Positions 20,904 to 40,335 of a DNA stretch of 64,000 nucleotides are shown one piece after another. A program made the position numbers and the translations under genes. The DNA comes from Symsagittifera roscoffensis (taxonomy: Eukaryota). Position 1 is the stretch's first letter; each line of letters opens with the position of its first letter. The stretch spans positions 32,809,028 through 32,873,027 of the forward strand of contig NC_087064.1 of assembly GCF_963678635.1 (NCBI RefSeq), in the 5' to 3' direction. Below the pieces are notes generated by a model. That model did not search any database. It worked only from the letters and a program-made list of their open reading frames with translations, and had not been told where the DNA came from.

Positions 20904-20940
20904 CTAACTTTTAAAAGTCTATGTAGGGGTGTTGGGCAGG

Positions 20941-21348
20941 TGGAACCTGATCTAAACTATATTTTATGATTGGATAAATTAAATGTTTTACCAATGTAAA
21001 GTATTTAATATTAACCAATCATGATCCATCTAACTAACAACCCACTTATTTGTAAGTGCTGAAGTTACTTGTAATTTCAGCACCAGAGAGATTTGAATTT
21101 AACTTAGAAATTAGTTGGACTCTCCCGAGCACTTCAGCAGCCGCAATAAACCAGTATACCCTAGATCTATTGAGCCTAGCAGAGACTAGTTAAACAACCT
21201 GAGACTAGATAGTATAAGAGTAAGATTAGGATCGGTATTAGACTAAGAAGTTGCACGAATCTATCCGGCCGAAAATAAGATAGCGTGACGAGCAGACGGT
21301 GTACCCTATCCGAAATTACTCTATGAGTTACACTCCAGTCCAAACTCA
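20941..21348 (+). repeat. 5' LTR (408 bp).
   Basis: Base-for-base identical, by eye, to 39499-39906. Starts TGGAACC and ends AAACTCA. Confidence 0.9.
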
Positions 21349-21350
21349 TC

Positions 21351-21373
21351 TGGTGCGACCATAAGTCTCGAAC
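21351..21373 (+). promoter_or_regulatory. Candidate primer-binding site.
   Basis: TGGTGCGACCATAAGTCTCGAAC begins 2 nt after the LTR end. TGG plus the complement of a tRNA acceptor/T-arm is the usual PBS form. The same motif is conserved next to the LTR of the degenerate copy. Confidence 0.55.
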
Positions 21374-22003
21374 AAGACCTTATTAGATTAGAATTAACCA
21401 AAATTAGATTAGAAATTAGACAAAAACATTTACAAAATGTTATACGACAATAATTTAATTGAAATGTCTCTCCGACTCAATAGATCCGAGCCAATATTCC
21501 GAACCATAATAGAACTACCCGGAATTGGAAGAAGACATCGAACCAAAGACGACATACGACAAAGTAGAAACTTGCCGTATAGTTACATGATAGTTCGGCA
21601 AAAGCCAGAACAAACTTTTATATTTCGAATACTACTTGCAATGAATTTAGATTTCCATTTGCAAACATAAAACCTTGAAGTAAATCTTCAAAATCATTTC
21701 AGGCGCTAAACAAAATTAATATTATACAATAACGATTGATAAAAAGATCTAAGATCGTTTTCCTAAAATTCTGCAGTATTATACAAAACATGTTTGAAAA
21801 ATATTTATTGAAAAAAAAAAAAAAATAAAAATTAGTAGCATGACAATAAATGGTTAGTAATCATAAATCATCCTGTTGTTCCAGCTTCATCACCTAAAAC
21901 ATAACAGCAATCATCAACTCACTAATATCATAAAATACTAAATCTTTCCTTTACACAAATTTAAAACCTCATTAAAACTTAAAGTCACTTAATTTTAAAA
22001 CCA

Positions 22004-22148
22004 GATCATCAAGGCTTATCCTTGGATCTTAAATCATTTTCTACTTCATTACATTTTAAATTTGATCATCAAGGCTTATCCTTGGATCTTAAATCATTTT
22101 CTACTTCATTACATTTTAAATTTGATCATCAAGGCTTATCCTTGGATC
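22004..22148. repeat. Perfect 60-bp tandem repeat, 2.4 copies, in the retroelement leader.
   Basis: Unit gatcatcaaggcttatccttggatcttaaatcattttctacttcattacattttaaattt starts at 22004, 22064 and 22124. Confidence 0.9.
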
Positions 22149-22664
22149 AAACAGAACAACTTTGTTCTCCCCCACCCACTTAATTAGTGTCTAACGACCT
22201 CAAACGTCGATTCACTACCCAACCCTTTCTAAAGACCCAAGACTAATAGAAATTTTTAAACAAAACTAATCATTCAAATTAGGATAAACAGTGAAGAACT
22301 TCGGTTATTCATCCTTCACTTGATCCCCCCTCTTACCAGACCCAGGATAAATCTTAGACTTAGTAAGTTTAAAATAGTATCTAACGAACTACTCGCGTTC
22401 TAATTATACCTGAACCTTGTGGATCGATTTACTATTCTCCAACCCTTGAACACAATCACTACCCCTAAGTAAGATTAAGTAAGTTAACACCTTAGCTTAT
22501 ACTAGTCACGAGAAAGTAAAAATCATTCTTCGGAATCGATATACTTTTCTCTCCAACCCTAAACAAATAGACCCAGGTTAAGCTAACCAAAAAATCGTAA
22601 GAACTAACAGTTTAGGAAAATAGAAATCATTTAACAACCTTTTGCACCCGTCATCCTAAACCTT

Positions 22665-23132
22665 ATGTCATTTAAAAACCTAGGGAATAAACAAACAATC
22701 GTTTTACACAATTGTGAAATAGATAACAAAAAATACGACCTTGTAATCACACCTCATACACAAACAGTTGGATACATTCGAACAAAACGACAAACACTAA
22801 AGAGAAAAATAATCACTAAACAAAGACAAATAACACGAAAAAGATTTTCAAAAAATCGAAACGCATTTTCAGAATCAGAAACCAACAGTTTAGACGAACT
22901 CTACAAACTAAAAGAATCAATAGATAAAAATTACCCACAACACGATCAATTATATTTTTCTGACTCAGAAACAACTTCAAATTCATCACAAAGAGGAAAA
23001 AGAAGAATAAAAAAGCAGTATAAACACAAACCAGTACATCTATACAACTGGAATCAACCAATTCGACACATTAATAATTACATATTAACAGTCATCGAAC
23101 GAAAAAATGAGTTCAACGCACACCCCAGGTGA
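22665..23132 (+). CDS. Leader ORF (155 aa, very basic K/R-rich) that overlaps the gag-pol start by 26 nt in another frame. Coding status is uncertain.
   Basis: ORF-track entry. The stop lies downstream of the polyprotein ATG. A-rich sequence biases toward lysine codons, so this may be spurious. Confidence 0.25.
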   Translation: MSFKNLGNKQTIVLHNCEIDNKKYDLVITPHTQTVGYIRTKRQTLKRKIITKQRQITRKRFSKNRNAFSESETNSLDELYKLKESIDKNYPQHDQLYFSDSETTSNSSQRGKRRIKKQYKHKPVHLYNWNQPIRHINNYILTVIERKNEFNAHPR

Positions 23133-26100
23133 CGAAACTCCAGATGATGATGAAATCTTTCCTTTTATAGTAGATGCAGATACTGATAGAGGACAACACA
23201 TATTTTGTCAAAATTTACTCGTAAATTTATTTGAACCCGGAATCAGTCCATGTAAAACAGAGTTCCCCGATGTAAAAATCAAAAGACAAATCATAGATCA
23301 CTATCTAAAAGATATATGCAACATAACACAACAATATGGAATCTACTCTATAGAATTCACTTCCCCAAACCATAATAATAGAACATACACTATTCAAACA
23401 GACGACCTTGATTTAGAATTTTCAAAAGTTTTTTCAGAATATATAAAAAGCATACAATACCATAACTCACAAAGAGCAAACTCCATTTTCACCAATGAAG
23501 TTTTCGCACTAATATATAGTTATATTTCGATATTAGAAAATGAACTCCCATTAACAAATGTCTCACCGACAGAAACATCTAAACATTTAAGAGTACGACA
23601 TGAAATCACACTACTCTCTAGTTATTTAAACATCATTAAAGAAAATTTCACGAAAGACGACGTTTCACAACATACCAAACACGATTTACAAAAAATTTTA
23701 GCATGGTTCATAATAGATTATTTTACACACAATATTGATTTAATTGCACAAGCAAGAAAAAATTTTAGACCCCAAAACTCGAACGATGATACAGCTATCA
23801 CAGAACAATCAGATTATGTTTGGGACCCCGAATGGTCTCATCCCGTATTTATAAACTTTCCACAATCAATCTCAAGTCAAGCAATAGGTACAATATCTTA
23901 CATAAGAGATTATGTAAGAGTAATACCATTAACAATTGATGCAACACCATTAAACTATAATACATTTTTACCCGATACACAAAATAATAGTTTAAACTCT
24001 ACAGTCATACACAATGAAAACCTCAATGGAACTAGGAATCTTACTCAACAAGATATACAGACACCATCACACTTCATAAATGAAGAAATTGTACACACAA
24101 CAACTACACAACAAAGTATTTCACCAATACGCCCAAATTTAACAACACCAAGAAATACAAATCCTTCACAAACACAGGTAACCTTACAATCAACCGTTAA
24201 ACCTTCGGTTGCCCCTAAATATTCACATATGGATTACCAAACATACAAACCCATGACAATACCATCAAAAACACGCAAAACATTCACTAGAAACAACTTT
24301 GCAGACCATAATTATAATTATACACATCCATCAAAAACAAATTATAAACCACAAAGAAATTTTAATCAATATACAAAACCTCGAAACTGGGATAACCCAA
24401 CGGCCCAATATAATTCCACAAATTTTCAACCAAATCCTCCACAGGATCGCAGTGAAAATTACCCATTTTTTCAACAAAATAAAAATAAAAAACAAACATC
24501 TTATCAAATGGATTATTTATCCTCAGATGAAGATTTCTTACAACCAGATATATTTGCACCAAATACTCAAGAATATCGTAGACAAGGAATACAGAAAACA
24601 CGTACAAACCATAGAAATTTTTCTCCACAATCAATAGATGCACAATATCAACAACCAATTCAACAACCAAATCCAATTAATATACAATCTTTTCAACCAA
24701 TTCAACAACAAAATCCAATGACTACACACTCGTATCAACCATCACAAATGCAAAATGAAATACCACTCCCGTATTATCTTCAACAACATGAAATAACAAG
24801 AAACCAACTTTCAAATTTTTCTCAAATGCCAAATGCAGCTGAATCATTACAAATGACAATGAATCCATACCTTATGGGTGGATCATCAATAACATCAAAT
24901 AAACCCTTAATGGTTTTCACAGGAACAGACCCTGAATACTCTGTAGAAGATTACTTAAATGCAGTAACAGCAAATTTAATTTTAAATATTGGACCTGAAC
25001 CAATTAACACGCCACTACATCAAAACTGGATACATCGACGCACAGCGTTGATACAAACAACCTTAGATGGCGCAGCCCAAAAATGGTTTTCAGTACTACC
25101 TCAAGAAATAAAATCAAACTGGAAAAGATTTACACAAGAATTTTCAAAAATGTTTGACTCCGAAAGAAACAAACAACAACAAAGAGTTTTATGTAATGAA
25201 ATTCGCAGATTACCAAACGAAACCATCAAGCAAATAGCAGTAAGAATCGAAACACTAGTTCGAAAAGCATATTCACTAAATACACATGACTATAAAAACA
25301 CTAAGATGACAGAAATCTTAATGATGACCTTAACACCACAATTAAGGAAAATAGCAATAAAAAAGAGAGCATCACATCCTTCTTCAATTCGAGAACCCGA
25401 TTTAGATTTTAGAAAACTAGTAGACAAACTAGAACAAGCAGAAATCACAATGAAATTAGAAGAAACGGAAAATCTGAAATTACAATACGTTAACAAAATT
25501 GAAACGACTCCCACTAATATTAATAATATACAAGAATCAGAAACAGATCTCGTTGAAAAAATCACTGAAATACTCAATATTTACGAAAAGAACCCGAACT
25601 TTAAAGGCAAACCATCTTTCAAAAAATGGTGTAATTATTGCCGACGATACGGACATAGTATTTCCGAATGTAGACAAAAACAACAAGATAGTCAAAATAA
25701 ACCTCAAAAATACAAAGAACCAAATAAATCATTTTATCAATACATGAAAAAAGATCAAAACCTACCAAACAAAAATGTATACAGCAACAACAGTTCAGGA
25801 AAACCACTCCCAAACAATACAAGCTATACAAGAAATCAATCTCCATATAACTCAAGTTATAGAGGAAGATCACCAGAACGAAGAAACACGTATAATTCAT
25901 CACAAAATCACTACAATAGACCGAATAGTCGAAATAACTACTCCAGATCAAATTCAAATACACAACGATTTGTTTCTAGATCTAATTCTCAATCAAGAAA
26001 TAACTATTATCCAAACAACCAATCACGAAATTCATCATACAATAGGAATAGAAACTACTCCTATAATCGAAATAGAAGTTATTCAAACAACCGAAACCAG

Positions 26101-29100
26101 AATTACCCGAACAATCGATCAAGGAATAACTCATATAATAGATCGAACTATAACAGACCAAACAATAATTACCAAAACAGATCACGAAATAATTCACAAA
26201 ATCGACACTCAAGTTATAATAATCGTTATAGAAATTATTCCCAATCACCACACCGGAATAATAATAACTATAATAATTCTAATAATCGCCACAGAAGTAG
26301 TACACCTAAACATCAAAGACAAATCAATCAAGTACAATCTAATCCAGAAACAACATCAGACCCTCCAGGTATTGATGACACAGTAACTGATACGTTACAA
26401 CTCAATCAAATAAACTGTACATCATCAGATTCAGAAAGTGATACTGAAAACACTCTTTCTATCAATATGATAAAAGTCGAAAATGACTATGAATCTGTCA
26501 TATATGAACAACCCTTTCCATCACACATATATGAAAATCAATCAGAATTTCTTCAAAATTATTACACTACACCCATAAATTCCACACCAACAACGCAAGA
26601 AACAAATGAGATTAACACTACAAATCAAACCAATAAAAACACCAAAACAAAATGCTTGAATACAAACCACATTTATCAAAATATACAAAAAGAACAACCC
26701 AAAGAAAAAATTTGGACAATACCATTTCTCTTAGAAAGCCCAAGAAATAAAGAATTTCAACCACCAGACCTTGAAATAGATTTTTTAATTGATTCAGGAG
26801 CAGAATCAAACATAATAAACATTCCCACATGGAATGAAATAAAAATCTTACACCCAAAGCTAACACCTCTTGAAACCTCCAGCAAACTAGCGACAGCACA
26901 AGGATCAACATTGATAAACTACGGAAAAATCCAATTATTTCTCCTCCCTACCAGAACAATGGAACAAAGTAAAATTTTAAATAAGCCATTTAAACAAATA
27001 TTCCATATCACCGATATTAAATATAATATCATTGGAATACCATTTATTTCAAAGTATATACCAACAATTAACATACTAAATAGTAAAATATTAATCAAAG
27101 ATAAATATACAAAAACAAAAGAAACATCCTTAACATTTTTTCAAAGATTGAATAAACAACCACCATTCTTTTCAAAATTTTATCCGATATTTAACCAACA
27201 AAGAAAACACCTGAAACCACTATCAGGAAACATCTATAATTTTTCAATCAAACAAGTTCACCAATATGATAAAGCACAAAACAAACAAAAATTTTATATG
27301 TCAGATTTTGAATTCAAACCGATTCATAAATTTTTCAAAATCACAATCTCTTCAATAAAATATTTGAAAAATTCGAATTCAGATATCATCTCCTTACATG
27401 TCTATAACAACACACCTTACCAAGTAACATTACCATTAGGAGTTTTAGGATATTGTGAAACCAACGCAACAATATCACCAATACACGAAAAAGCCTATCG
27501 CGTAAATAATATACTCCAATTACTAGATATTTGCCAATCTACAATTCTTAATGAAGAATTATCTATAAATAATATAATAAGTAACGAAAACAGAAATACG
27601 GATTATTTCACAAAAACTCCATATTTCAAACCTACATTCAACATCAGTAACTACACAGAGGACCAACAGAAATTTTTAACAATGTTTAATTTCCAACATT
27701 CACAAATAACACAAGACGAATTTGAAAAGTTAGCCAAACAGCTAATTCAATATTCATCAGTCTATGCAACATCAAAATTCGATGTTGGCAAAATCAGTTC
27801 ATCACTACATCTCCCATTAAAACCAGACGCAGTTTTCAAAAAACAAAGAGCAAGTAAAGTACCAATTCACTTACATGATAAAGTAAACAGATTACTCGAT
27901 ATTTTAGAGCAATACAACATTATATCACCGGTTAATAAAGAAGAACAACCAAAAGGCAACACATTCATCAACCCCGTTATCATTCTAGCTAAAGGAGAAT
28001 CGTTAAAAATCGTTCTCGATGCTAGATACCTCAATTCACTCATAGATGAATCAAAATGTAATTGGCTCATTGAACCAATACAAGTTATTTTAACAAAAAT
28101 AAACGGCAAATACTTCACAACCGCCGACATGAATAGTGCATACAATCAAATGCCACTAGATGAACAATCACGACGTTTAACACAATTTGTTATCGGAAAC
28201 CAACAATATGAATTCAACCGCATATTCTATGGAATATCCATAGGACCAGCAGCATTTTCAGCCTTTATGAGCAAAATTTTTAGACCACTAATACTCAAGA
28301 AAAACGCAATCACCTATTTAGACGATGTTTTTATGCAATCACAAACAAAAGACGAAATGTTCAAAGTTTTAGAAACATATCACCAAATACTTCAGAACGA
28401 AAATCTGAAGGCCGCCCCCGATAAATCACACTTCTTTTTGACTAGAGTTAAATTCTTAGGACATAATATAGAAAGAAAAACAATCACTCCACTGAAATCA
28501 CGCATTGACGCTATTCAAAAACTTCAACCACCAACAAATAAAAAGAAAATCCAAGAGTTCCTTGGAATGTTAAACTTTTTAAGTAAATATGTTTATAAAA
28601 TGCAATTATACCTACGACCATTTTATAACATCCTTAGACAACAAAACAACTTTGAATGGAATACAGAACATCAAACACGATTCGAAGAAATAAAGAAACT
28701 TTTAACTGAACAAATTTCAAACACAATTCCAGACCCTGATCAACCATTTTATGCAATGTGCGATGCTTCGAACTTTGGCATCGGCGCAGCATTATTACAA
28801 TCACATAATGGTACAAATAAAATGAACCTCATATCAGCAAATTCTCGATTATTCACTCAAGCAGAGCTACGACTCTCAACTCTAATGAGAGAATGTACAG
28901 CCATAATATATACACTTACAGAATATGAATTTCTGATACTTGGATCAAAACATCCCACAGTTTTGTTCACAGACCACAAACCAATCATCTTTCTTTTTAC
29001 ACAGAAATCTAACCCAAACCACCGAGTTTACAGATTTCAACTAATTCTAATGAAATTTCCAAACTTACATATAGTTTGGACTGCAGGAAAAAATCTTGCA

Positions 29101-31329
29101 TTACCAGACACCTTAAGTCGAAATACACCACCTGAATTACTTACACGAAAAACAACAGTTGAAATACCCAAAAATATAAAATTCTACCTTGCAGAAAACG
29201 AAACATCACCTCGATTAGAATGCAAATATGCAGTAAAAACTGATATTGAACAATCACAAATAAATAATTTACAACATTTCCCACTTTATTTAGATTGTCA
29301 AAATAATCATTATGAAGTTGACCTACTTGGAACATCAACTTTTAAACCAATTCCATATTCTCAATGGATAAAAAATAACACCCAACAAAAACGAACAAAA
29401 CAACACCTACCTAAAAAAGACCATTTTCCACTAATTGAAAAAGAAGATTTAACTGATAAAATAAATTTATCAGGACCACAAACAAATGATTCAAAATACA
29501 CAATAAATCAAGTTTTTGACCTTCACGACCCACTTGATACAATACCATTATCTAAATTAGAAATCGAAAACATTTTTCTCCCCCCAACAGAAACAATTAC
29601 AATTTCAACACTGAAACAATATCAAAACCTTGACCCAGTAATTCGACAACTAAAATCATGGCACAAATATAAAACTAAACCTATCAAAGCAGATTCAACC
29701 ATTCTAGGAAACAAAACACTCCTCCGATACTTTCGCAAGTTTAACAATACAACAATTAACGAAAATACAGACCTTTTAGAGTACAACCTTAATGAATCTA
29801 CAGTTCCCTGTCTCCCTATAAGTATGATTCTTATAGCTTTTAATATTTCACATACACAAAACATTAAAGGACACTCTGGATCAGAGAAAACATATTCAAA
29901 TTTTATACAAAATTTTTACTTCCCAAATGCACCAATTTGGATAAAAGTACTATGCAATGATTGTATAGTATGTCAATTAAATAAACCTTACCCAAATCAA
30001 AAACAAATAGCACAAAAACAAGATTTTAAAGGACAAAGTTTATACTTTAATCATCGTATCTCATTTGATACTAAAGGACCAATTTCACCCTCATCAGAAG
30101 GAAACTCCTACATTATGGTAATTGTTGACGCATTTACACATTATGTAGCACTTAACCCAGTACCACATTGTAACGCTTATTACGCATACACAACACTTTA
30201 TGAACACTGGATAGCAAAATTTGGACTACCAGAAATTTTAGTCACAGACAATGGTACAGAATTCATAAATAATGAAATAATAACACTATGTCATTTATAC
30301 AACATTAAACACAAACCACGTACATCTCATGCACCTTGGACAAACGGCTTAGTCGAAGGTATGAACCGTTCACTACAAGAATATCTTAGATGTATCATCA
30401 ACGGAAATGATACCAAATATACCGAATGGTCAGCAGATGTAAAATTATTTCCATTAGCATATAATTCACAAATCACGACAACTTTAGGAATGTCACCATA
30501 CGAAATGGTTTTCAACCAAAAGCCACGCAAACCAATAATGTTTACAGCAAATTCCCATAAAAACGCACAAGGTTATTGTCAACCAAATAAAGACTCAATT
30601 TGTTATAACCTACCATTACATACGCACGATGAAGATCATTTTCATCACCCACAAATCCTTAAATTAGCCTCCGGTACACACACCGAATGGATTTTAAATA
30701 GAGATAAGAAACACAATGAAATTTACCAAAAAATAACGAAAAAGTTATTACAAAGACAAAACATAAATGAACAAATCAATTCACGTTTTACACCAGCTTC
30801 CGATTTAAAAATTGGAACATTTGTTTTAATACCTAATTTTAATACTCAAAAAGGAATTTCTAAAAAATTACAACCCCTCCGAAAAGGACCCTATCAAATA
30901 ATTGCAAAACCCACAGATGTCACATATAAAATTATCGACTCAAACAAAAAAGAAATCGTTCAGCATCGAAACAACCTATTACCTTATTACCCAAAAGAAT
31001 ACGCACTCCGCGAATTAACCCAATTATATTCTTTCACAGGATTAAAAATTATTCAAAACGAACCACATCTGAAAAACACAGAACAAAATGATAACCCCAC
31101 CGAAAATCAAAACACAAAACCAATCGCTACCAAAAACAATACACAAAACCATAAAGAATCTCCAAAACAAAGAAAAAATAGAAAAATGACAGAACAAATA
31201 ATACCCCAAGAAGAAATAGACAAATCAGAACATAGAAAGACAACAAGACTCCGAAATCAACCACGTAAAAACTACAAAATGTTCATCCCCCAATCTAAAA
31301 TATTAAAGAAAGTAGAATTTAAAAATTAA
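23107..31329 (+). CDS. gag-pol polyprotein (2740 aa): N-terminal extension, gag-like, CCHC zinc knuckle, Arg/Ser/Asn-rich region, aspartic protease, RT, RNase H, integrase.
   Basis: Uninterrupted 8.2-kb ORF. Motifs CNYCRRYGHSISEC, FLIDSGAESN, TTADMNSAYNQMPLDE, YGISIGPAAFS, ITYLDDVFM, RVYRFQLILMKFPNLHIVWTAGKNLALPDTLSRN, H-x6-H-x29-C-x2-C, VIVDAF...VTDNGTEF...TNGLVEGMN, LRKGPYQI. Confidence 0.93.
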   Translation: MSSTHTPGDETPDDDEIFPFIVDADTDRGQHIFCQNLLVNLFEPGISPCKTEFPDVKIKRQIIDHYLKDICNITQQYGIYSIEFTSPNHNNRTYTIQTDDLDLEFSKVFSEYIKSIQYHNSQRANSIFTNEVFALIYSYISILENELPLTNVSPTETSKHLRVRHEITLLSSYLNIIKENFTKDDVSQHTKHDLQKILAWFIIDYFTHNIDLIAQARKNFRPQNSNDDTAITEQSDYVWDPEWSHPVFINFPQSISSQAIGTISYIRDYVRVIPLTIDATPLNYNTFLPDTQNNSLNSTVIHNENLNGTRNLTQQDIQTPSHFINEEIVHTTTTQQSISPIRPNLTTPRNTNPSQTQVTLQSTVKPSVAPKYSHMDYQTYKPMTIPSKTRKTFTRNNFADHNYNYTHPSKTNYKPQRNFNQYTKPRNWDNPTAQYNSTNFQPNPPQDRSENYPFFQQNKNKKQTSYQMDYLSSDEDFLQPDIFAPNTQEYRRQGIQKTRTNHRNFSPQSIDAQYQQPIQQPNPINIQSFQPIQQQNPMTTHSYQPSQMQNEIPLPYYLQQHEITRNQLSNFSQMPNAAESLQMTMNPYLMGGSSITSNKPLMVFTGTDPEYSVEDYLNAVTANLILNIGPEPINTPLHQNWIHRRTALIQTTLDGAAQKWFSVLPQEIKSNWKRFTQEFSKMFDSERNKQQQRVLCNEIRRLPNETIKQIAVRIETLVRKAYSLNTHDYKNTKMTEILMMTLTPQLRKIAIKKRASHPSSIREPDLDFRKLVDKLEQAEITMKLEETENLKLQYVNKIETTPTNINNIQESETDLVEKITEILNIYEKNPNFKGKPSFKKWCNYCRRYGHSISECRQKQQDSQNKPQKYKEPNKSFYQYMKKDQNLPNKNVYSNNSSGKPLPNNTSYTRNQSPYNSSYRGRSPERRNTYNSSQNHYNRPNSRNNYSRSNSNTQRFVSRSNSQSRNNYYPNNQSRNSSYNRNRNYSYNRNRSYSNNRNQNYPNNRSRNNSYNRSNYNRPNNNYQNRSRNNSQNRHSSYNNRYRNYSQSPHRNNNNYNNSNNRHRSSTPKHQRQINQVQSNPETTSDPPGIDDTVTDTLQLNQINCTSSDSESDTENTLSINMIKVENDYESVIYEQPFPSHIYENQSEFLQNYYTTPINSTPTTQETNEINTTNQTNKNTKTKCLNTNHIYQNIQKEQPKEKIWTIPFLLESPRNKEFQPPDLEIDFLIDSGAESNIINIPTWNEIKILHPKLTPLETSSKLATAQGSTLINYGKIQLFLLPTRTMEQSKILNKPFKQIFHITDIKYNIIGIPFISKYIPTINILNSKILIKDKYTKTKETSLTFFQRLNKQPPFFSKFYPIFNQQRKHLKPLSGNIYNFSIKQVHQYDKAQNKQKFYMSDFEFKPIHKFFKITISSIKYLKNSNSDIISLHVYNNTPYQVTLPLGVLGYCETNATISPIHEKAYRVNNILQLLDICQSTILNEELSINNIISNENRNTDYFTKTPYFKPTFNISNYTEDQQKFLTMFNFQHSQITQDEFEKLAKQLIQYSSVYATSKFDVGKISSSLHLPLKPDAVFKKQRASKVPIHLHDKVNRLLDILEQYNIISPVNKEEQPKGNTFINPVIILAKGESLKIVLDARYLNSLIDESKCNWLIEPIQVILTKINGKYFTTADMNSAYNQMPLDEQSRRLTQFVIGNQQYEFNRIFYGISIGPAAFSAFMSKIFRPLILKKNAITYLDDVFMQSQTKDEMFKVLETYHQILQNENLKAAPDKSHFFLTRVKFLGHNIERKTITPLKSRIDAIQKLQPPTNKKKIQEFLGMLNFLSKYVYKMQLYLRPFYNILRQQNNFEWNTEHQTRFEEIKKLLTEQISNTIPDPDQPFYAMCDASNFGIGAALLQSHNGTNKMNLISANSRLFTQAELRLSTLMRECTAIIYTLTEYEFLILGSKHPTVLFTDHKPIIFLFTQKSNPNHRVYRFQLILMKFPNLHIVWTAGKNLALPDTLSRNTPPELLTRKTTVEIPKNIKFYLAENETSPRLECKYAVKTDIEQSQINNLQHFPLYLDCQNNHYEVDLLGTSTFKPIPYSQWIKNNTQQKRTKQHLPKKDHFPLIEKEDLTDKINLSGPQTNDSKYTINQVFDLHDPLDTIPLSKLEIENIFLPPTETITISTLKQYQNLDPVIRQLKSWHKYKTKPIKADSTILGNKTLLRYFRKFNNTTINENTDLLEYNLNESTVPCLPISMILIAFNISHTQNIKGHSGSEKTYSNFIQNFYFPNAPIWIKVLCNDCIVCQLNKPYPNQKQIAQKQDFKGQSLYFNHRISFDTKGPISPSSEGNSYIMVIVDAFTHYVALNPVPHCNAYYAYTTLYEHWIAKFGLPEILVTDNGTEFINNEIITLCHLYNIKHKPRTSHAPWTNGLVEGMNRSLQEYLRCIINGNDTKYTEWSADVKLFPLAYNSQITTTLGMSPYEMVFNQKPRKPIMFTANSHKNAQGYCQPNKDSICYNLPLHTHDEDHFHHPQILKLASGTHTEWILNRDKKHNEIYQKITKKLLQRQNINEQINSRFTPASDLKIGTFVLIPNFNTQKGISKKLQPLRKGPYQIIAKPTDVTYKIIDSNKKEIVQHRNNLLPYYPKEYALRELTQLYSFTGLKIIQNEPHLKNTEQNDNPTENQNTKPIATKNNTQNHKESPKQRKNRKMTEQIIPQEEIDKSEHRKTTRLRNQPRKNYKMFIPQSKILKKVEFKN
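25630..25671 (+). other. Nucleocapsid CCHC zinc knuckle (C-x2-C-x4-H-x4-C).
   Basis: tgt aat tat tgc cga cga tac gga cat agt att tcc gaa tgt, in frame. Confidence 0.85.
25800..26330 (+). other. Arg/Ser/Asn/Tyr-rich low-complexity domain (RS-like) between the NC and protease.
   Basis: About 175 residues of repeated SRNNYS / NRNRSYS / NRSRNNSYNR motifs. Confidence 0.8.
26740..27080 (+). other. Aspartic protease domain.
   Basis: IDFLIDSGAESNIINIPTW, with DSG at 26791-26799. The matching segment exists in the degenerate copy. Confidence 0.8.
27810..29130 (+). other. Reverse transcriptase plus RNase H.
   Basis: RT motifs A through E, with YLDD at 28324-28335. RNase H CDASNFGIGAALLQ then TDHKPI, and the linker ending NLALPDTLSRN at 29124. 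Confidence 0.85.
29800..30950 (+). other. Integrase: HHCC zinc finger, DDE core and GPY/F-like C-terminus.
   Basis: HTQNIKGH...CNDCIVCQ, D(VIVDAF)...D(VTDNGTEF)...E(LVEGMN), and LRKGPYQIIAKPTDVTYKI. Confidence 0.85.
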
Positions 31330-31929
31330 TTTTAAAATTTTATACTTCACAATCTTGAAACCTCCGTAACATTTTTCATTTCCATTTTTCAAAATAACAT
31401 GCTCACAAGTACGCAATAATTCTAGTTCAAAATAGACCAATAGGATTCATCCAATCCGCCACTTTCTCTAACTCAAACTAAGATCAATTAGACGAATAAT
31501 CTAGAACTCCAGGCACATCTCTAACTATAACTTTACAACCTCCAGGTCAAAAATAAGCAAACCACTCCAACTTGACAGCTAAAATAAATATCACCATAAT
31601 ACCGTACCCCTCCCTTATCTAATAACCCAAAGATCAACAATATTTCCCCAACTCAGACCACGAATACCCCCAAAACAAATTTGATAACTTAGCCTAAAGT
31701 CACAAAATGAAGATTTTAATTAGCCTAAAGTATAAAAATCTCACCATACCCCGGATCATTTGACAAACAAAAATAAAGAAAAAGACGACCTCCCAGTCAC
31801 CATGAAAATTGCCCCCAACAATTTTTTACGAAACTCAACCCACTTGTCAAAAAACTAATAAATAATTCGACCACACTAGAAAATCGCCTCAAACAGCAAA
31901 AAATATTCGACAAAGAGATCATTTCTTAA

Positions 31930-32345
31930 ATGCTTTTCTCTCAAACAGTCGCTCAAATATTTATCAATTTTAAACATTTTTTTTCAATACTTCAAGTCTT
32001 TATAATCTTTCTTTTTGATATCATCGAATCTTTTCTAATAATCATAATAATTTTTTGTAACATTTTTTTAATTTTCTACACAATAATTGAACTATTCCTC
32101 CAACTTTCCAAAACCCTTGAATATATCCACAGGTACGATTTTAACAACTTGTCTAAATGATACGAACAATTTTCAGTAGAACTGATATTTTTTTATTGTT
32201 TGTAATTTTCATAACATTTCTATCATCCCTCATTTTGACAATATGTAAATGTATAAAGAAAGCAATCATTACATTTGCCCTAGCAACAATTTTTCTAATT
32301 CTTTTTTTAGAAGAATATTATAATAAACATAAACCCTCTCACTAA
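31930..32345 (+). CDS. Two short, very hydrophobic ORFs (76 and 62 aa) joined by an ATGA stop-start overlap at 32157. Coding status is uncertain.
   Basis: ORFs 31930-32160 and 32157-32345. T-rich sequence could create them by chance. Confidence 0.2.
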
Positions 32346-32350
32346 AGTAA

Positions 32351-33488
32351 CAATTTAAAAATCCATCAAAAATTGCTACCCAACAGTCACAGAATCAGTC
32401 TTCACCGACATCATCCCAAGATAATCCAACACCACCTTCAACTACTCAAAACCCTCAAACATCTACACGAATTTCTTTTCAAGACAATCCATACACCTTT
32501 GAAGAAAGGCACGCTCGTTTATCTGAACCACTAGAACCAGTTCAACGACAAGCATCCCTAAGTGAACCAACATATAATCTTTACCCAACACTACCACAAG
32601 AACTAAGTAGAATACGAAACCTTAGTCAAAACCAAAACACAGCAGAAATAAATAGACAAATTATACATCCTCGACGAAATAGAAATTTTCAAACTCCCCG
32701 AGTTCATTTTGATATACCTCAATCCCCAACACAAACCACTCCAGAAAACACCACTGGTATCACACCAGAAACTCCTACACTTTTTTCACAACGAAGCACT
32801 TCAAGTCTACCTTCAGACTACTTAGGTTCAACACCAACATCTGAACAGATACGTGAAAATCCCTTTAACCCCCCAAACCTAACATCACGACTGCCATATT
32901 GGACTACAAATTCATTCACACAAGGTGAACCAAATTTAGTCAATGACCCCATAGATATTTCTACGGATACAACAACATCCTCATCACTACCAGAAACATT
33001 ATCACTACCATCAACACCATCAATAAGTCAATTTTCACCACTACCCTTTAACTTAAATTTTCCAAATAATCTCGACGCCAGATATCGAGAACAATCATCA
33101 ATAAATATTCCTTTAAGATTAGATTGGAATACATTCACAGCACCTCCACCACTATTTGGACAACATCAAGAAAGTAACCGCCTTCATAACTGGGCACTTA
33201 ATAGATTACAATATCGCCAAGATATTCACAACGATATCCGTGATCACAATATTCAAATACTCCAACAAAACAGTTTACAATTAAAATTTGAAATCACAGT
33301 TAAGTTAAATAATATTACCCAACATCCCTACCCATTAAATCCACCTAACATAACAGCTCAATCACTACCACCACCGTTTATAACTACTGAAGTAATATAC
33401 AAATACGACAGATACACTAAAAACACAATTGGTTACATTACATTTTATAATCCATACTCAGGATTATCATACACATGTATATTCTAAA
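32351..33488 (+). CDS. ORFx: open reading frame of 378 codons with no in-frame ATG. N-terminus is S/T/P/Q-rich.
   Basis: Stop at 32348-32350, then no stop until taa at 33486-33488, in AT-rich DNA where stops are expected about every 15-20 codons. The C-terminal part is conserved at protein level in the degenerate copy (ORF 4402-4680). It overlaps the env-like ATG (33475) by 14 nt. Confidence 0.6.
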
Positions 33489-36093: not shown

Positions 36094-37883
36094 GCCGCCA
36101 ACTTGGATCACTCCATCGATCAAATTCCCATCCAACCAACCTTACCTCTTCAATCCCAATAATACCACTTTTTGCTTTTCCGCCACCCGATTTTCCATCT
36201 AGCAATGTAACATCAGGCATGAATTCCGACACTAACTCACAAATTTCAGTTTTATACTCCATTTCACAGCTAAATAACCCGAATATTGAAACCCCCGACG
36301 AATTTGCCGACTCAGAACCATCTCCATCCAATAATTTTCATAACCCTTCTCATTTTTCTCAACCTCCTTTTCAACCCATATTATCAAATAACCCTGACCC
36401 AATCACTCCTACACCCTCTTATGCTTCCCAAGTTACCCCAACCTACTCCTCATACCATTCTGACCAATCATCTCCAGACACCCCCCGAATCTCCCCAGAG
36501 CTAGACAATTTTATTACCCTCCAACAACAACCCTACCACCTTAACACCCCGACCATAAACCAAATCTCCTCCACTACAAATTCATCCAATCCCCCTACAC
36601 CCTCTTCAAATTATACCGAATCATTAGCACCATCATCCACATCAACTGAATCCTCACTCAACACTAATAGAGCTTATCGCACTTTTAAAAGAAAGTTCCC
36701 CAACCATCCTTTCCCAGCAAAACCAGGAACAGCCCGAGAATACATCAACCACCCCCAACATACTAACACTAGAGAATTTTTAGCCATCACTTTACCCTCA
36801 TTTCCACAATACACCTTAAACACCCCTCATGACGCTAACGAAACACGCAACTTTGTAGACGAATACGTTTTAATGCCCACTCTCTCTTGGACCTCATACT
36901 ATCATTTCACTAACCCTCTTTGCTTACCTTTAACTAACACATCCATTGATATAGACCGAAACAAAGACATGCTATATCGACTAACTACACCACTCACCGC
37001 TAGACAATTTACTTACGTTGGATATAAAAAATCACTAAAAATACACACTGCACCTAGAGCTAACGAATACACACTAGAATACTATGATCACAACATCATC
37101 AGAGCTAACCAAGATCAATTCTTAGACGACGATCGCTTCGCTAACCCACAAATCACCGAGAAATTTTTCATCAATACACCATATGTATTTACACTAAACA
37201 TCTTCGACCGAAAGTTTGATCACATTATTTCAGAAGCACTAACAAGCACACAAGCGTACGAAAGTTTTAAAGAACGCTTCCAAATCTTTTCACTAACCTT
37301 TCATTTCCTTGCACCACACGAAAGAGATTTACACTGCTCACACGATATTATGTTGCGAACTAAACAAACACATACATACAGTTACTATCGTTTCATCCAA
37401 AATCACTTTGACCTCCACACACCCTCTAGACAACCACACCATCGCTTTCAATTCATCAATTCAAAATACACTTCACCGTATTTCCTAAATTTCACATATT
37501 GTATTAAAAATACTAACCTTCATGGTATTCTTCGTAATTATGACCCCATAACCCAAATGTATATTTTCTGCCCCATCACCAAGACCTTCAACGCAGAAGA
37601 ATCCCGACCCTTCCTTATCCCGCACGAGTTTGTACAGCCTATAGAAATCCCCATTTTAGAATTCATCCACAACACTAAATTTAACCACAAGTTATATAAC
37701 TTAATCCAAAACACACCTTATGAGTTTGCAGTAGGCACTGAAGAACTAACCACTATTAAGGCACTTCAATTGCTTTGGCCACTACTTCAAACTAAAAATA
37801 TCATCCGCATCTTAGCTAAACTACTAACAACTTCAGAACTAATTCACAATATCTTCCCCCACGGTTTTTTCCCCGACGACTAA
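36090..37883 (+). CDS. ORF3 (597 aa), unknown function. Pro/Ser/Thr-rich N-terminal half and a structured C-terminal half.
   Basis: Its ATG overlaps the env-like stop (cgATGAgc at 36090-36093). It is conserved in the degenerate copy (822-1495, minus strand). No recognisable motif. Confidence 0.7.
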   Translation: MSRQLGSLHRSNSHPTNLTSSIPIIPLFAFPPPDFPSSNVTSGMNSDTNSQISVLYSISQLNNPNIETPDEFADSEPSPSNNFHNPSHFSQPPFQPILSNNPDPITPTPSYASQVTPTYSSYHSDQSSPDTPRISPELDNFITLQQQPYHLNTPTINQISSTTNSSNPPTPSSNYTESLAPSSTSTESSLNTNRAYRTFKRKFPNHPFPAKPGTAREYINHPQHTNTREFLAITLPSFPQYTLNTPHDANETRNFVDEYVLMPTLSWTSYYHFTNPLCLPLTNTSIDIDRNKDMLYRLTTPLTARQFTYVGYKKSLKIHTAPRANEYTLEYYDHNIIRANQDQFLDDDRFANPQITEKFFINTPYVFTLNIFDRKFDHIISEALTSTQAYESFKERFQIFSLTFHFLAPHERDLHCSHDIMLRTKQTHTYSYYRFIQNHFDLHTPSRQPHHRFQFINSKYTSPYFLNFTYCIKNTNLHGILRNYDPITQMYIFCPITKTFNAEESRPFLIPHEFVQPIEIPILEFIHNTKFNHKLYNLIQNTPYEFAVGTEELTTIKALQLLWPLLQTKNIIRILAKLLTTSELIHNIFPHGFFPDD

Positions 37884-37889
37884 CAGGTA

Positions 37890-37965
37890 AGTATGAACTA
37901 AATGAATATTACTAACTAATTAAAATATTGAAAAACTCACCATTCCTTATTCATGTTTTCTTTAG
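37890..37965 (+). other. Intron-like signal immediately after the ORF3 stop: consensus donor, TACTAAC branch point, pyrimidine tract and AG.
   Basis: gactaaCAG|GTAAGTATg ... atTACTAACtaat ... ttcatgttttctttAG|att. Confidence 0.3.
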
Positions 37966-39498
37966 ATTTTTAGCCTTCATCTTCAATCATCTGAAAAATT
38001 CACAAAAGAAAAATAAAAAATAGCAAACTTCTTCAAAACTATTTAAAACCCTATTTAACTTTTGCACCAACAATTAAATAAATATAATACCAATGCAGTA
38101 AATTAATTTATAAAATTTTCCCCTAAAAGCAGTAAATCTACATATGATGAAAATTTGTATCTTAAAATTCCCCCATTACTAGCAGTAAATTTCCAAATTC
38201 TATGCAGTAAATTAATAAAATGCAATTGCAGTACTAACCTTTTGATATTTTCATTCATTCGCACAGAAATTCTATCCACACTCGCACAGCTCGCCCACGA
38301 AGAATTGTTTAAAATAATGAATTTCAGTTTCAAGTTTTCACACTCAACAACTCTAACAAATAATAACAAGTTTCAAACTTTCCTTTAACCCGGTTGGAAA
38401 GGAATCATATACTAAACAAAACTAACCAACGCAGCTTACTAAATACCACAAATCATAAAATAACAGCATGACTAAGAAAAGGAAACCAACGGTACCCAAA
38501 CCGGATTAACCCAGTTTAAAACTGGATAATTTATTCTTTTGAAGACTATTACAAAGTCTTAGAAAGAAATAATAAAACACAAAAAAGTCAAAAGACAAAC
38601 CCATACCACAAACAATTTGCTTTTTGGAAAAAGTACATAACCAACAAAACATAAGTAAAACCACAACAAACCCAACATAAAATGTTGTCACATAACAGGA
38701 CCCCTCATAAAAACCGCATGAAATCATACTCCCACACCTGGCCTAACCCACCAGGAAAGGACGTCCTGAGCATGCTCTATAGCCGGCCTAACCCACCGTG
38801 CTACATCCACGCTTTGTGACCACACCTTTATTTTTAATAAGAGCTACTCAAGGGTGAGTAACTCTTCAAAATAACCGAACTAAAACAAAAAGCTTTTGTG
38901 AAAACAACTAACTAAAATCATAATTAAAAAATATTAAATTAATAAAAGTTTTATAAAATGTAAAATCACATGATGCAATATATAGATCAGAATACAACAC
39001 CAAGGACGAACATCAAAAGACAAGACGACCTCACTACACTCGAGAGAGAATGACCAACTATAATCGATATGCCGCTCACAATCACAACTCAAAGGATTTA
39101 GAGTACGACTTGACCTCGCAGAAAAGGACTTCATTGAACTAGACCAATGACCACCTCGATGTTCAAGTATACGTACAGATCCGAGTAACCAGGCATCCCC
39201 TCCACGCACAATCTCCACGCCATTCCCGAGCTAGATCAAACACAAAAGAAGTTCTCTCCGAAGAACAGAAAAACCTGACATAGCCAACCATTCTGAAACC
39301 AGAATTGATGCTGTTGCAGAGACTCAGTCGTTGTCACAAGAAGAACACAACGTCTTGTGTCCTCAATTCCAGATCCCTGGAACTTCCTTAACAAAAAGGA
39401 AACAAAAGAAAAATGATGTTCGCCAAATACCAACGTCCATCATCCATCCTTGAACTACAAAAGAACTGTTCTAAAAAACTCTGTAAAACCCGGATGGG

Positions 39499-39906
39499 TG
39501 GAACCTGATCTAAACTATATTTTATGATTGGATAAATTAAATGTTTTACCAATGTAAAGTATTTAATATTAACCAATCATGATCCATCTAACTAACAACC
39601 CACTTATTTGTAAGTGCTGAAGTTACTTGTAATTTCAGCACCAGAGAGATTTGAATTTAACTTAGAAATTAGTTGGACTCTCCCGAGCACTTCAGCAGCC
39701 GCAATAAACCAGTATACCCTAGATCTATTGAGCCTAGCAGAGACTAGTTAAACAACCTGAGACTAGATAGTATAAGAGTAAGATTAGGATCGGTATTAGA
39801 CTAAGAAGTTGCACGAATCTATCCGGCCGAAAATAAGATAGCGTGACGAGCAGACGGTGTACCCTATCCGAAATTACTCTATGAGTTACACTCCAGTCCA
39901 AACTCA
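39499..39906 (+). repeat. 3' LTR (408 bp).
   Basis: Identical to 20941-21348. Preceded by a weak purine tract cccGGATGGG. Confidence 0.9.
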
Positions 39907-40335
39907 CAGGGGTGGATCTAGGATTTTCTCGAGGGGGGGGGGCGATTTTTCAAAAATTTTCGAAATTTTTGTCGACCTTTTTTTTTTAGGTCGACCCGAA
40001 TTGATTTTCCGAGCTCTCCCAAAGCACTAAAAAGACCCTGTTTTAGTCAAATTTTCTGCGCCGCAGGCATTTTTTTGGAAAACAGGCCAAAAAAAAGGCG
40101 TTTTTAGTCACTTTTTAAAAAATTTTGACCAAAAAAAATGCGTTTTTTTGGCGCTCGCTCCCCCCTTAGAGTAAGTATATATTGGCGCCTAAGGCGCCTT
40201 TAGAAAATTTTTAGGGTCCGTCACCAAATATGGATATCTTAAAATAGTACAAAGGGGGGACCCTTTGGGTCGGCAGGGGGCCGAATCCCTGAGGGAGGGG
40301 GAGGGGAGCGTCCGCCCCCCCTAAATCCGCCCCTG
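39907..40335 (-). mobile_element. hAT-like MITE copy B (429 bp). It is the target of the retroelement insertion.
   Basis: Begins CAGGGGTGGATCTAGGATTTTCTCGAG and ends CCCTAAATCCGCCCCTG, the reverse complement of copy A's organisation. The 5' flank at 20937-20940 (CAGG) equals the first 4 bases of this MITE. Confidence 0.8.

Follow-up and report, generated by a model that had tools for sequence, protein, structure and literature searches.

The 64,000-nt window of the Symsagittifera roscoffensis genome analysed here carries a plus-strand LTR retroelement of 18,966 bp, which is very probably a full-length provirus, integrated very recently, of a Ty3/gypsy family that is abundant and is active now or was until very recently, and whose accessory genes are constrained. 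The host is a marine acoel worm. Its env ORF has the sequence hallmarks of a class III (chuvirus/gB-like) viral fusion glycoprotein. The novelty of the element lies in its host phylum, its size, the number of its accessory genes and its expression strategy. A preliminary description had recognised an endogenous-retrovirus-like lineage with uncharacterised accessory genes, and that reading holds; the novelty is nonetheless narrower than it implied, since Ty3/gypsy elements with gB-type env have already been surveyed across Metazoa (Chary and Hayashi, eLife 2026, PMC13524379; cited throughout for the parts available to us).

Element structure and family placement

Features of the element are collected in Table 1. 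Both LTRs proved identical base for base, as first described; the exact direct repeat spans 410 nt (20939-21348 and 39497-39906), or 408 nt when read as LTRs with TG..CA ends, and an AATAAA lies at position 205 of the 5' LTR. The CAGG target-site duplication is present on both sides, and the PBS-like motif is kept in two diverged related families, represented by a decayed copy in the window and by copy L003, although their LTRs are only about 74-78% identical. The leader, put at 1.76 kb in the preliminary description, measures 1758 nt, and its tandem repeat has one unit less in other copies. At the opposite end, the purine patch before the 3' LTR constitutes a weak polypurine tract, and the 3' untranslated region differs from that of L001, a 95% copy, at 7.8% of aligned positions.

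Table 1. Features of the element and its target site, in window coordinates
Feature	Position	Strand	Basis or remark
Target-site duplication CAGG, left copy	20937..20940	+	Read straight from sequence
5' LTR, 408 bp, TG..CA ends	20941..21348	+	408/408 identical to 3' LTR
PBS-like TGGTGCGACCATAAGTCTCGAAC	21351-21373	+	Begins 2 nt past 5' LTR
60-nt tandem repeat, 2.4 copies	22004..22148	+	Leader
Two GTAAGT, candidate major 5' splice donors (inferred)	22363 and 22479 (22363..22484)	+	Leader
ORF0, 155 aa, basic (K/R-rich)	22665..23132	+	dN/dS
gag-pol, single uninterrupted 2740-aa ORF	23107..31329	+	
s1, 76 aa, strongly hydrophobic with two helix-like stretches	31930..32160	+	
s2, 62 aa, two predicted transmembrane helices	32157..32345	+	dN/dS, hydropathy
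ORFx, no ATG	32351..33487 (378 codons stop-to-stop, 32351-33484)	+	dN/dS, open frame
env, 872 aa	33475..36093	+	PF24664, dN/dS 0.10-0.19
ORF3, 597 aa	36090..37883	+	dN/dS 0.09-0.27
3' untranslated region	37884..39498	+	Ends in purine patch GGATGGG abutting LTR
3' LTR, 408 bp	39499..39906	+	
Target-site duplication CAGG, right copy	39907..39910	+	

The gag-pol ORF has no internal stop in the window sequence. Its product begins with a domain at residues 1-290 and a low-complexity stretch at 291-600, followed by capsid (about 600-790), a CCHC knuckle at 842, an N/S/R-rich stretch, a protease with DSGA at 1229, a segment of roughly 250 aa, reverse transcriptase with YLDD at 1737, RNase H, a bridge, and an integrase with HHCC, DDE and GPY/F motifs; Pfam detected no chromodomain in gag-pol. 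The sequence places the element in Ty3/gypsy (Metaviridae), because its Pfam domains (gag, CCHC knuckle, RVT_1, RT_RNaseH, Integrase_H2C2 and rve) fall in gypsy order and Ty3 Gag-Pol is the best hit among solved structures (E 1e-45). A BEL/Pao (Belpaoviridae) placement, which the preliminary description had left to profile searches and an RT phylogeny, is rejected on the same evidence.

Copies, youth and integrity

The suggestion that the element is very young and potentially active is borne out by other copies as well as by its LTRs. Five copies in unrelated flanks are 99.5-99.7% identical to it, with LTRs 99.3-99.8% identical to its 5' LTR; the cluster of env sequences at 90% identity has 4561 members, and ORF3 is represented by at least 120 distinct full-length sequences that are 98-100% identical. 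These counts describe an abundant young family, in a genome of which about half is LTR retrotransposons. Intactness is supported by L004 and L007, which share the same open 2740-aa gag-pol ORF; the term 'intact' applies to the window sequence as given, because L009, the same locus in an independent assembly, has three 1-nt insertions that would break gag-pol and ORFx. In the flank, a Na/Ca-exchanger ORF clusters at at least 90% identity with S. roscoffensis XP_063714616.1, which identifies this acoel as the host.

The window also holds a decayed copy on its minus strand, between the first position and about 17036. The preliminary description took it for an older copy with all of the extra ORFs conserved. 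ORFx, env and ORF3 do have recognisable homologues there, but these are broken, and the copy is assigned to a diverged, related family because it is only 68-77% identical to the element in DNA.

An element of about 19 kb, two to three times longer than env-carrying errantiviruses, might be a composite, namely a standard gag-pol gypsy element whose 3' half contains host genes that it captured or some unrelated insertion, or it might be an assembly chimera. Its unusual size, and the lack of a match between ORFx or ORF3 and known families, are compatible with such an origin, which we nevertheless regard as extremely improbable: gene order is collinear among L001, the more diverged and decayed L010-L012 and the decayed window copy, a single identical LTR pair and a single target-site duplication enclose the whole element, base composition is uniform through coding and non-coding parts (A.41, G.11), and there is no internal LTR-like repeat.

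A class III fusion glycoprotein

The ORF first described as env-like appears to encode a true viral fusion glycoprotein. It matches Pfam PF24664 (chuvirus-type, gB-like class III fusogens) at E 3.9e-11, and a relative does so at 5e-37; its sequence features comprise a signal peptide, a 13-Cys ectodomain, a transmembrane segment at about 707-728, another hydrophobic stretch (747-765), and a tail of roughly 100 aa with a PTAP motif. Foldseek searches returned as top PDB matches exclusively gB, GP64 and Dhori GP, and in BFVD chu-like virus glycoproteins (E 6e-12); this fold evidence is supportive only, because the AlphaFold model is poor (pLDDT 36). The chuvirus-type glycoprotein is itself structurally gB-like according to Chary and Hayashi (PMC13524379).

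Env-mediated infectivity is a tentative proposition. The family may instead be a purely intracellular, efficient retrotransposon, whose env and accessory ORFs serve non-infection roles such as host manipulation or evasion of silencing. Germline retrotransposition alone can yield thousands of copies, no exogenous relative of the element was found in IMG/VR or JGI metagenomes, and infectivity is demonstrated for no gB-type errantivirus in those parts of the literature on them that were available to us. However, decay would be expected of a fusogen that plays no part in fusion, and env retains its signal peptide, Cys-rich ectodomain, membrane anchor and tail at dN/dS 0.10-0.19 across lineages some 30% apart in DNA; we consider a wholly intracellular existence unlikely.

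Accessory genes under constraint

The leader and the 1-kb gap after pol are not empty: they contain three further conserved or constrained ORFs (ORF0, s1 and s2), which the preliminary description had missed. ORFx and ORF3 were confirmed at the lengths first given, the former with no Met in its 378 codons. The dN/dS values indicate clear purifying selection on ORF0 (0.21-0.39, vs 0.81-0.86 in adjacent non-coding control sequence), s2 (0.04-0.10 vs L001, L010 and L012), ORFx (0.11-0.21) and ORF3, as on env, and range from 0.05 to 0.47 by segment in gag-pol and from 0.45 to 2.3 in non-coding or out-of-frame controls; for ORFx, env and ORF3 they lie at about 0.1-0.2, vs 0.45-0.86 in non-coding controls. 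Since the values come from comparisons between transposon copies, not all of them undecayed, neutral post-insertion decay is blended into the signal of selection on the active lineage; this biases the values upward, not downward. The s1 ORF is conserved across sublineages without clear purifying selection: five lineages share its start region, an intact ORF is present in the window, L001 and L011, and its dN/dS of 0.32, obtained against L001 only, gives it weak support.

The exact ORF0 protein was found in 59 index blocks, and its basic character makes an RNA-binding regulator our best guess at its function. The s2 product is a small membrane protein whose gene lies shortly before env, a Vpu-like position. 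Our best guess for s1 and s2 is that they are Vpu-like or viroporin-like envelope helpers. ORFx is Pro/Ser/Thr-rich with a conserved C-terminal third, and matches nothing in Pfam or PDB; its frame is open across the same 378 codons in L001. In ORF3, the N-terminal 200 aa are disordered and rich in Pro/Ser/Thr and are followed by a C-terminal domain of roughly 400 aa; the protein finds relatives only among fragments of related elements, and gave no Pfam, PDB or fold match (AlphaFold model, pLDDT 49). Both ORFs are genuine genes under purifying selection. The YPxL motif of ORFx and the PTAP of the env tail would, as a best guess, suit budding or tegument-type adaptors.

Proposed expression strategy

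Several features of the sequence suggest expression by leaky scanning. Across the ORFx body, ATGs in all three frames number 1, 1, 1, 3, 3 and 2 in six lineages, vs about 10 +/- 2.8 expected, and env and ORF3 controls show no such depletion. The sole in-frame near-cognate codon within the first 24 codons of ORFx is an ATT (32372-32374) in the context AAA-ATT-G; the codon and its A at -3 and G at +4 are conserved, and L012 has ATG at that position. Because of this depletion and the conserved context, we infer that ORFx may start at AUU while other ribosomes scan on to env, a model to which we give about an even chance.

In Drosophila gypsy, Tom and ZAM, env is expressed through cis-splicing from an upstream exon, and the ORFx Met might likewise be donated, within an otherwise unchanged architecture; for example, the first seven gag codons could be joined from a donor-like CAG/GTGACG (23128/23129) to TCCCAAG/AT at ORFx codon 24. 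The donor-like CAG/GT at gag codon 8, the in-phase AG in ORFx and the lack of an ORFx ATG in the window lineage all accommodate such splicing. It is improbable, however, given that protein conservation between lineages begins at ORFx codon 6-8, upstream of the acceptor, that all-frame ATG depletion is predicted by scanning and not required by a donated AUG, and that the ATT is an ATG in one lineage.

Under the leaky-scanning model, genomic RNA would yield both ORF0 and gag-pol: ORF0, which overlaps the gag ATG, starts in a weak context, and the stretch between the two start codons contains no further ATG. The ORFs s1, s2, ORFx and env would share a subgenomic RNA, produced either by splicing at a leader GTAAGT donor or from an internal promoter. 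GTAAGT occurs only five times in the whole element and never in the 14.7 kb of coding sequence; L010 keeps both leader sites and L012 keeps one. Ribosomes would skip the weak AUGs of s1 and of s2, which overlaps the s1 TGA stop (ATGA), a minority would start ORFx at AUU 32372, and the remainder would scan through 1.1 kb devoid of AUG until they reach the start codon of env. ORF3, whose ATG overlaps the env stop (ATGA), might be reached by termination-reinitiation, or have its own mRNA through the T-run and AG 6 nt upstream (a junction conserved in five copies), either in cis or by spliced-leader trans-splicing, which S. roscoffensis uses. Leader ATGs are likewise few (8 vs 22 +/- 4.4 expected); since seven AUGs lie early in the leader and the env AUG is in weak context (C at -3), simple cap-dependent scanning is not the whole story.

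Precedents for this model are RTBV, in which ORF I starts at AUU and ORFs I-II are AUG-free, and the vpu- or rev-env dicistronic mRNAs of HIV/SIV (PMC5902531). RTBV and the badnaviruses (Caulimoviridae) also share with the element reverse transcription, successive ORFs with short overlaps or ATGA junctions, and scanning through AUG-free upstream ORFs. RTBV is, however, a plant pararetrovirus without LTRs, integrase or env; the likeness is one of mechanism only, which in the element is deduced from sequence statistics.

Relation to known elements

The closest comparison is with errantiviruses carrying gB/chuvirus-type env (PMC13524379), which share the order LTR-PBS-gag-pol(PR-RT-RH-IN)-env, a pol of Ty3/gypsy type, a class III envelope that has both a signal peptide and a membrane anchor, and several near-identical copies indicating recent activity; the prototypes, Drosophila gypsy and ZAM, have F-type env. 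The present element differs in its length, in its single gag-pol ORF with an extra N-terminal region of roughly 600 aa, in its five further ORFs, constrained or (s1) conserved, and in its host phylum, Xenacoelomorpha, which is absent from the list of phyla of that survey; nor do the parts of the survey available to us describe a comparable accessory set or ATG-less ORF. Anakin of mosquitoes (Dezordi et al., 2020, PMC7642597, in the parts available to us) likewise has a captured chuvirus-like, gB-like glycoprotein downstream of pol and inside the LTRs, but on a BEL/Pao rather than a Ty3/gypsy backbone, and accessory genes comparable to ORFx or ORF3 are not described there. Planarian Burro/GYPSM1 (Grohme 2018; Arkhipova and Yushenova 2019, PMC6431247) is also a giant gypsy-like LTR element of a flatworm-like marine or freshwater worm. 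It too is present in thousands of copies, codes for additional products and has a fusion glycoprotein of mononegavirus-like type. Burro, however, exceeds 30 kb, has its env in frame between gag and pol, and carries BIR, MATH, ankyrin and BCL2-like domains within one 4.9-kaa polyprotein, whereas here, in another host phylum, env is a separate ORF after pol and the extras are separate ORFs without recognisable domains.

In the life cycle we propose, LTR-driven transcription would be followed by tRNA-primed reverse transcription and insertion by integrase, and Env would pass particles between cells, for instance from somatic cells into the germline in the manner of Drosophila gypsy. Complex retroviruses (HIV/SIV and foamy viruses) resemble the element in having a small membrane protein directly upstream of env, probably expressed with env from one mRNA via leaky scanning, several accessory ORFs, and an A-rich, G-poor plus strand. 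There is no sequence homology between them, their Env is class I rather than class III, and the element's pol belongs to Metaviridae, not Retroviridae. In its organisation, the element resembles a 'complex' retrovirus and may be seen as the invertebrate equivalent of one.

Structure, Classification and Age of the Element

A repeat scan with exact extension recovered a perfect direct repeat of 410 nt (20939-21348 and 39497-39906), delimiting a young element of 18,966 bp. The identical LTRs, 2740-aa gag-pol, ATG-less ORFx, env and ORF3 claimed in the preliminary description are confirmed exactly, as is the target-site duplication on both sides; the LTRs have TG..CA termini. The PBS-like motif proposed there is retained in two related families that have diverged to an LTR identity of only ~74-78%, which is the behaviour expected of a primer-binding site. 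No tRNA gene was found, and no Rfam family matched, in the window or the related loci scanned; the polypurine tract beside the 3' LTR amounts to a short GGATGGG patch.

Features of the young element, with dN/dS of coding regions and controls
Feature	Position	Strand	Description	dN/dS
Target-site duplication	20937-20940 and 39907-39910		CAGG, 4 bp, adjoining each LTR	
5' LTR	20941-21348	+	408 nt, TG..CA, 408/408 identical to 3' LTR	
Candidate PBS	begins 2 nt past 5' LTR		TGGTGCGACCATAAGTCTCGAAC, TGG-initiated, 18-23 nt	
Candidate major splice donors	22363 and 22479		GTAAGT, leader	
ORF0	22665-23132		155 aa, basic	0.21-0.39 (adjacent non-coding control 0.81-0.86)
gag-pol	23107-31329	+	2740 aa	
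Protease motif	aa 1229 of gag-pol		DSGA	
RVT_1	aa 1665-1788		Pfam; YLDD at 1737	
RT_RNaseH	aa 1876-1984		Pfam	
Integrase_H2C2	aa 2244-2294		Pfam	
rve	aa 2315-2406		Pfam	
Integrase				0.05-0.36
s1	31930-32160		76 aa, very hydrophobic	0.32 (weak support)
s2	32157-32345		62 aa, two predicted transmembrane helices	0.04-0.10
ORFx	32351-33484	+	378 codons stop-to-stop, without Met	0.11-0.21
env	33475-36093	+	872 aa	0.10-0.19
ORF3	36090-37883	+	597 aa	0.09-0.27
3' LTR	39499-39906	+	408 nt, TG..CA, 408/408 identical to 5' LTR	
Extra bases in L009	25371, 32480, 32649		each would frameshift gag-pol or ORFx	
Control, non-coding, arbitrary frame				0.45-0.86
Control, PR-RT-RH out of frame				0.8-2.3

The polyprotein contains, in order, a Retrotrans_gag capsid, one CCHC knuckle, protease, RVT_1, RT_RNaseH, Integrase_H2C2, rve and a p58 C-terminal (GPY/F) region, and its closest solved structure is the Ty3 Gag-Pol (PDB search, E 1.2e-45). 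Only gypsy-type Pfam profiles matched, and there was no match to the BEL/Pao profiles Peptidase_A17, DUF1758 or DUF1759. Together, these profile and structure-sequence matches place the element in Ty3/gypsy (Metaviridae) rather than in Belpaoviridae, the two families named in the preliminary description. Three polyprotein segments, namely the gag N-terminus, the protease-RT linker and the RNase H-integrase bridge, matched no Pfam family even at lenient thresholds. The N-terminal 290 aa contain no recognisable domain yet are constrained (dN/dS 0.2-0.5); dN/dS in the domainless ~250-aa protease-RT segment is 0.07-0.18 (L001, L010, L011) and 0.52 (older copy), and in the bridge 0.08-0.12 (L001, L010, L012, L011) and 0.24 (older copy).

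All database relatives of the element derive from ENA long-read metagenome assemblies; a Na/Ca-exchanger ORF beside one such copy falls in a cluster of at least 90% identity with XP_063714616.1 of S. roscoffensis, which marks this acoel as the host. Five other copies, all with unrelated flanks, share 99.5-99.7% identity with the window copy, and two of these five retain the open 2740-aa frame. Clustering at 90% identity places Env in a group of 4561 members, and ORF3 is represented by no fewer than 120 distinct full-length sequences that are 98-100% identical. The family is very young and high in copy number, and the extreme youth first suggested from the LTRs is upheld by the near-identical copies at unrelated sites. 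In an independent metagenome assembly the window insertion itself (L009) carries three additional single nucleotides that would break gag-pol and ORFx, two of them at short homopolymer runs, so that the intactness of the window copy hinges on which assembly is correct.

The preliminary description also held that the accessory ORFs are conserved in an older copy. Broken homologues of ORFx, env and ORF3 are indeed present in the decayed minus-strand neighbour, but at only 68-77% DNA identity it represents a related family. This older element (1-17036) contains a 3.6-kb tandem duplication (7851-11354 and 11464-14973), the 98-100% identical halves of which point to a recent segmental duplication inside an old, dead element.

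Several further observations concern composition and surroundings. The plus strand of the young element, coding and non-coding, is 41% A, 22% C, 11% G and 26% T (flanks: A 35%, G 16.5%), a skew that is mirrored in window 1-16000. This G-poor, A-rich strand resembles that of lentiviruses, and may reflect G-to-A editing of cDNA, or RT/dNTP bias. Within the leader, a 60-nt unit is perfectly repeated in tandem (22004-22148), with 2.4 copies in the window element and approximately one unit fewer in five other family copies (a 64-nt length difference). Inverted-repeat arms of ~79% identity lie on both sides of the insertion site (18026-18436 and 39916-40335), and the element therefore seems to have inserted within another repeat. 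A tandem array of a 146-nt unit occupies 61411-61927, its two central copies 99-100% identical and the outer ones ~61-62%. The minus strand is open at 63339-63998 and encodes a Sec63 Brl domain there (E 2e-10), probably representing one exon of a host helicase gene of the Brr2/ASCC3 type.

A Chuvirus-Type Envelope

The 'env-like' designation proved apt. The protein matches PF24664 'Monjiviricetes_fusion' at 42.1 bits, above the curated gathering score of 27, and a distant relative of Env matches this family at 5e-37. The architecture further comprises a signal peptide, an ectodomain with 13 cysteines, a membrane anchor at ~707-728 and a tail of ~100 aa bearing PTAP. A PDB search with env and the env profile gave no meaningful match. 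An AlphaFold (AF2) model built on a 12-sequence alignment is of low confidence (pLDDT 36) and is used here as weak support through Foldseek, in which the best 34 PDB matches of this low-confidence model were all class III fusogens, namely herpesvirus gB, baculovirus GP64 and Dhori virus GP, and its best BFVD matches were chu-like virus glycoproteins (E down to 6e-12). Chary and Hayashi (PMC13524379) describe the chuvirus-type glycoprotein of retroelements as structurally gB-like. Membership of PF24664, with weak support from the predicted fold, argues for a chuvirus-type class III fusion glycoprotein.

No relatives emerged when the env alignment was scanned against IMG/VR and the JGI metagenomes. 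A 7.9-kb contig (L002, ERZ25071281) encodes an env homologue of 27% identity beside a gypsy integrase, with the motif LLVTHYDCE in common; its base composition shows no skew between strands, and it lacks homologues of ORFx and ORF3. If this contig derives from another host, as it may, the envelope lineage would appear to be wider than that of the accessory genes. A further locus (L003), from the same metagenome sample as L009, holds a different, decayed env-bearing gypsy family with a 23% identical env, and several small, cysteine-rich, RING-like ORFs (CPICxxxC...CPICRQ) 3' of env at 14382-15637, which may constitute a different accessory-gene set.

Accessory Genes Under Purifying Selection

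Selection was assessed by comparing the window copy with a 95% identical copy (L001), with two to three copies that are more diverged and decayed (L010 and L012, joined in some regions by L011) and with the older copy. The preliminary description's claim of uncharacterised accessory genes withstands this analysis: dN/dS of ORFx and ORF3 (0.09-0.27) is below that of the controls (0.45-2.3), and neither protein has a Pfam or PDB match. Its account of the intervening regions requires amendment, as the 1-kb stretch that follows pol holds s1 and s2, and the leader holds ORF0, all three of which had been overlooked. On these codon-level comparisons ORF0, s2, ORFx and ORF3 are demonstrably genes under purifying selection, and five lineages share a conserved s1 start.

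No Pfam family matched ORFx, ORF3, ORF0, s1 or s2, and lenient thresholds were also blank for ORF0, s1, ORFx and the C-terminal part of ORF3. PDB searches with ORFx and ORF3 returned nothing meaningful among solved structures. An exhaustive search with ORF3 found only fragments of related elements among the best 150 matches listed, and its structure model was poor, with no fold match. From composition, position and short motifs, we might guess that ORF0 is an RNA-binding regulator, that s1 and s2 are Vpu-like membrane helpers, and that ORFx and the Env tail act as ESCRT-recruiting adaptors via YPxL and PTAP, respectively.

A Proposed Leaky-Scanning Cassette

From s1 to ORF3, each ORF lies in the -1 frame relative to the preceding one. 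The junctions between s1 and s2 and between env and ORF3 read ATGA, s2 ends 6 nt ahead of the ORFx opening, and the env ATG lies 10 nt upstream of the ORFx stop. Across all three frames, the 1.1-kb body of ORFx contains 1, 1, 1, 3, 3 and 2 ATGs in six lineages with a divergence of up to ~30%, against an expectation from composition of ~10 +/- 2.8; control pieces of env and ORF3 of equal size are not depleted. Methionine is absent from ORFx, versus 0.6-1.6% in the other proteins of the element. The sole in-frame near-cognate codon in ORFx codons 1-24 is an ATT at 32372, which reads AAA-ATT-G with its flanks and thus has A at -3 and G at +4. It is retained across the lineages, one of which has ATG at this site. 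The AUGs of s1 and s2 both have weak contexts, as does that of ORF0, between which and the gag AUG no ATG is observed where 4.5 are expected.

The all-frame ATG depletion and the conserved AAA-ATT-G lead us to propose that s1, s2, ORFx and env would be carried on a single subgenomic RNA and read by leaky scanning, with ORFx starting at AUU 32372. In rice tungro bacilliform virus (RTBV), ORF I begins at AUU, and ORFs I-II are AUG-free, such that ribosomes scan ~900 nt onward (PMC5902531). As a signature of sequence, the ORFx cassette fits this type in its putative non-AUG first ORF and its AUG depletion, and the postulated RNA recalls the dicistronic vpu-env and rev-env mRNAs of lentiviruses (PMC5902531). 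On the genomic RNA, leaky scanning past the weak ORF0 AUG would give access to the gag AUG.

Several other routes to these ORFs were considered and ruled out. A -1 frameshift from s2 into ORFx would need a window open in both frames, and there is none; from ORFx into env there is no slippery heptamer, and the Env signal peptide sits at its own ATG. An AUG donated to ORFx by the spliced leader (SL) is excluded by the published S. roscoffensis SL, which contains no ATG. A T7AG at ~32300 fails as an ORFx acceptor in that its AG is not conserved, and N-terminal extensions of ORFx homologues are discounted as true starts, their frames differing between copies.

The leader GTAAGT motifs would be the major splice donors: both are kept in L010, one also in L012, and the motif is absent from the 14.7 kb of coding sequence. 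GTAAGT occurs five times in the element in total, the others being at 37887, 4 nt past the ORF3 stop codon, and in the LTRs (21052 and 39610). As env contains 39 ATGs, ORF3 is out of reach of scanning, and two routes to it may be envisaged: termination-reinitiation at the AUGA, or an mRNA of its own via a conserved T-run/AG that lies 6 nt 5' of the ORF3 ATG. Since spliced-leader trans-splicing is reported in the literature to cover 30% of S. roscoffensis genes, the latter could be an SL trans-splice. We consider that this scheme probably describes expression from s1 to ORF3.

Between the pol stop and s1, conserved non-coding blocks (31690-31880) stand out among lineages otherwise ~30% diverged. 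The motif TTAGCCTAAAGT is present twice, and CAACCCACTTGTCAAAAAA..AATAAATAAT includes an AATAAA; the blocks could act as an internal promoter, direct polyadenylation or signal RNA export.

Relation to Known Elements and Significance

The features assembled here describe an errantivirus-like Ty3/gypsy provirus, of unusually large size and gene content, with a distinctive putative translation strategy; its errantivirus-like trait is an ORF for a viral-type fusion glycoprotein within the LTRs. Env-bearing gypsy elements are widespread, and are usually described with three genes. Here, instead, intact near-identical copies carry at least four extra constrained genes (ORF0, s2, ORFx and ORF3), none of known family. 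The Chary and Hayashi survey reports env-carrying Ty3/gypsy elements with F-type or gB-type Env from the majority of metazoan phyla, frequently in several near-identical copies; Xenacoelomorpha is absent from its phylum list, and no comparable accessory-gene set was found in the sections consulted (PMC13524379). Chuvirus-type glycoproteins were first linked to retroelements in mosquito BEL/Pao (PMC7642597). In the giant planarian Burro elements an in-frame env separates gag from pol, and host-like domains are recognisable (PMC6431247), whereas the env described here is a separate ORF 3' of pol, and the polyprotein is devoid of BIR, MATH, ankyrin and BCL2-like domains. Literature searches gave no account of acoel LTR elements that are env-bearing or complex, and in the literature searched such elements have not previously been described in Xenacoelomorpha.

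The overall picture in the preliminary description, of a young, potentially active, endogenous-retrovirus-like element with uncharacterised accessory genes, is supported with the corrections outlined. On a bolder reading, which we regard as doubtful, the element is a currently active, possibly infectious, complex invertebrate retrovirus. Its seven genes would then be gag-pol, a chuvirus-type Env of class III, a pair of small Vpu-like membrane proteins, the basic protein of the leader and two large proteins restricted to this group of elements, and its AUU-initiated, AUG-depleted leaky-scanning cassette would be convergent with plant pararetroviruses and lentiviruses. If so, accessory-gene complexity would not be limited to vertebrate retroviruses, and the element could serve as a natural gene-delivery vector for acoels. 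For annotation, prokaryote-style or ATG-dependent gene callers will overlook ORFx in this family. The host phylum is important to animal phylogeny and regeneration research, and approximately half of the S. roscoffensis genome consists of LTR elements, according to the literature. Should the family be active, it would offer a tractable system for dissecting the roles of accessory genes in invertebrate retroviruses, a candidate explanation of the LTR load of acoels, and a possible basis for transgenesis tools.
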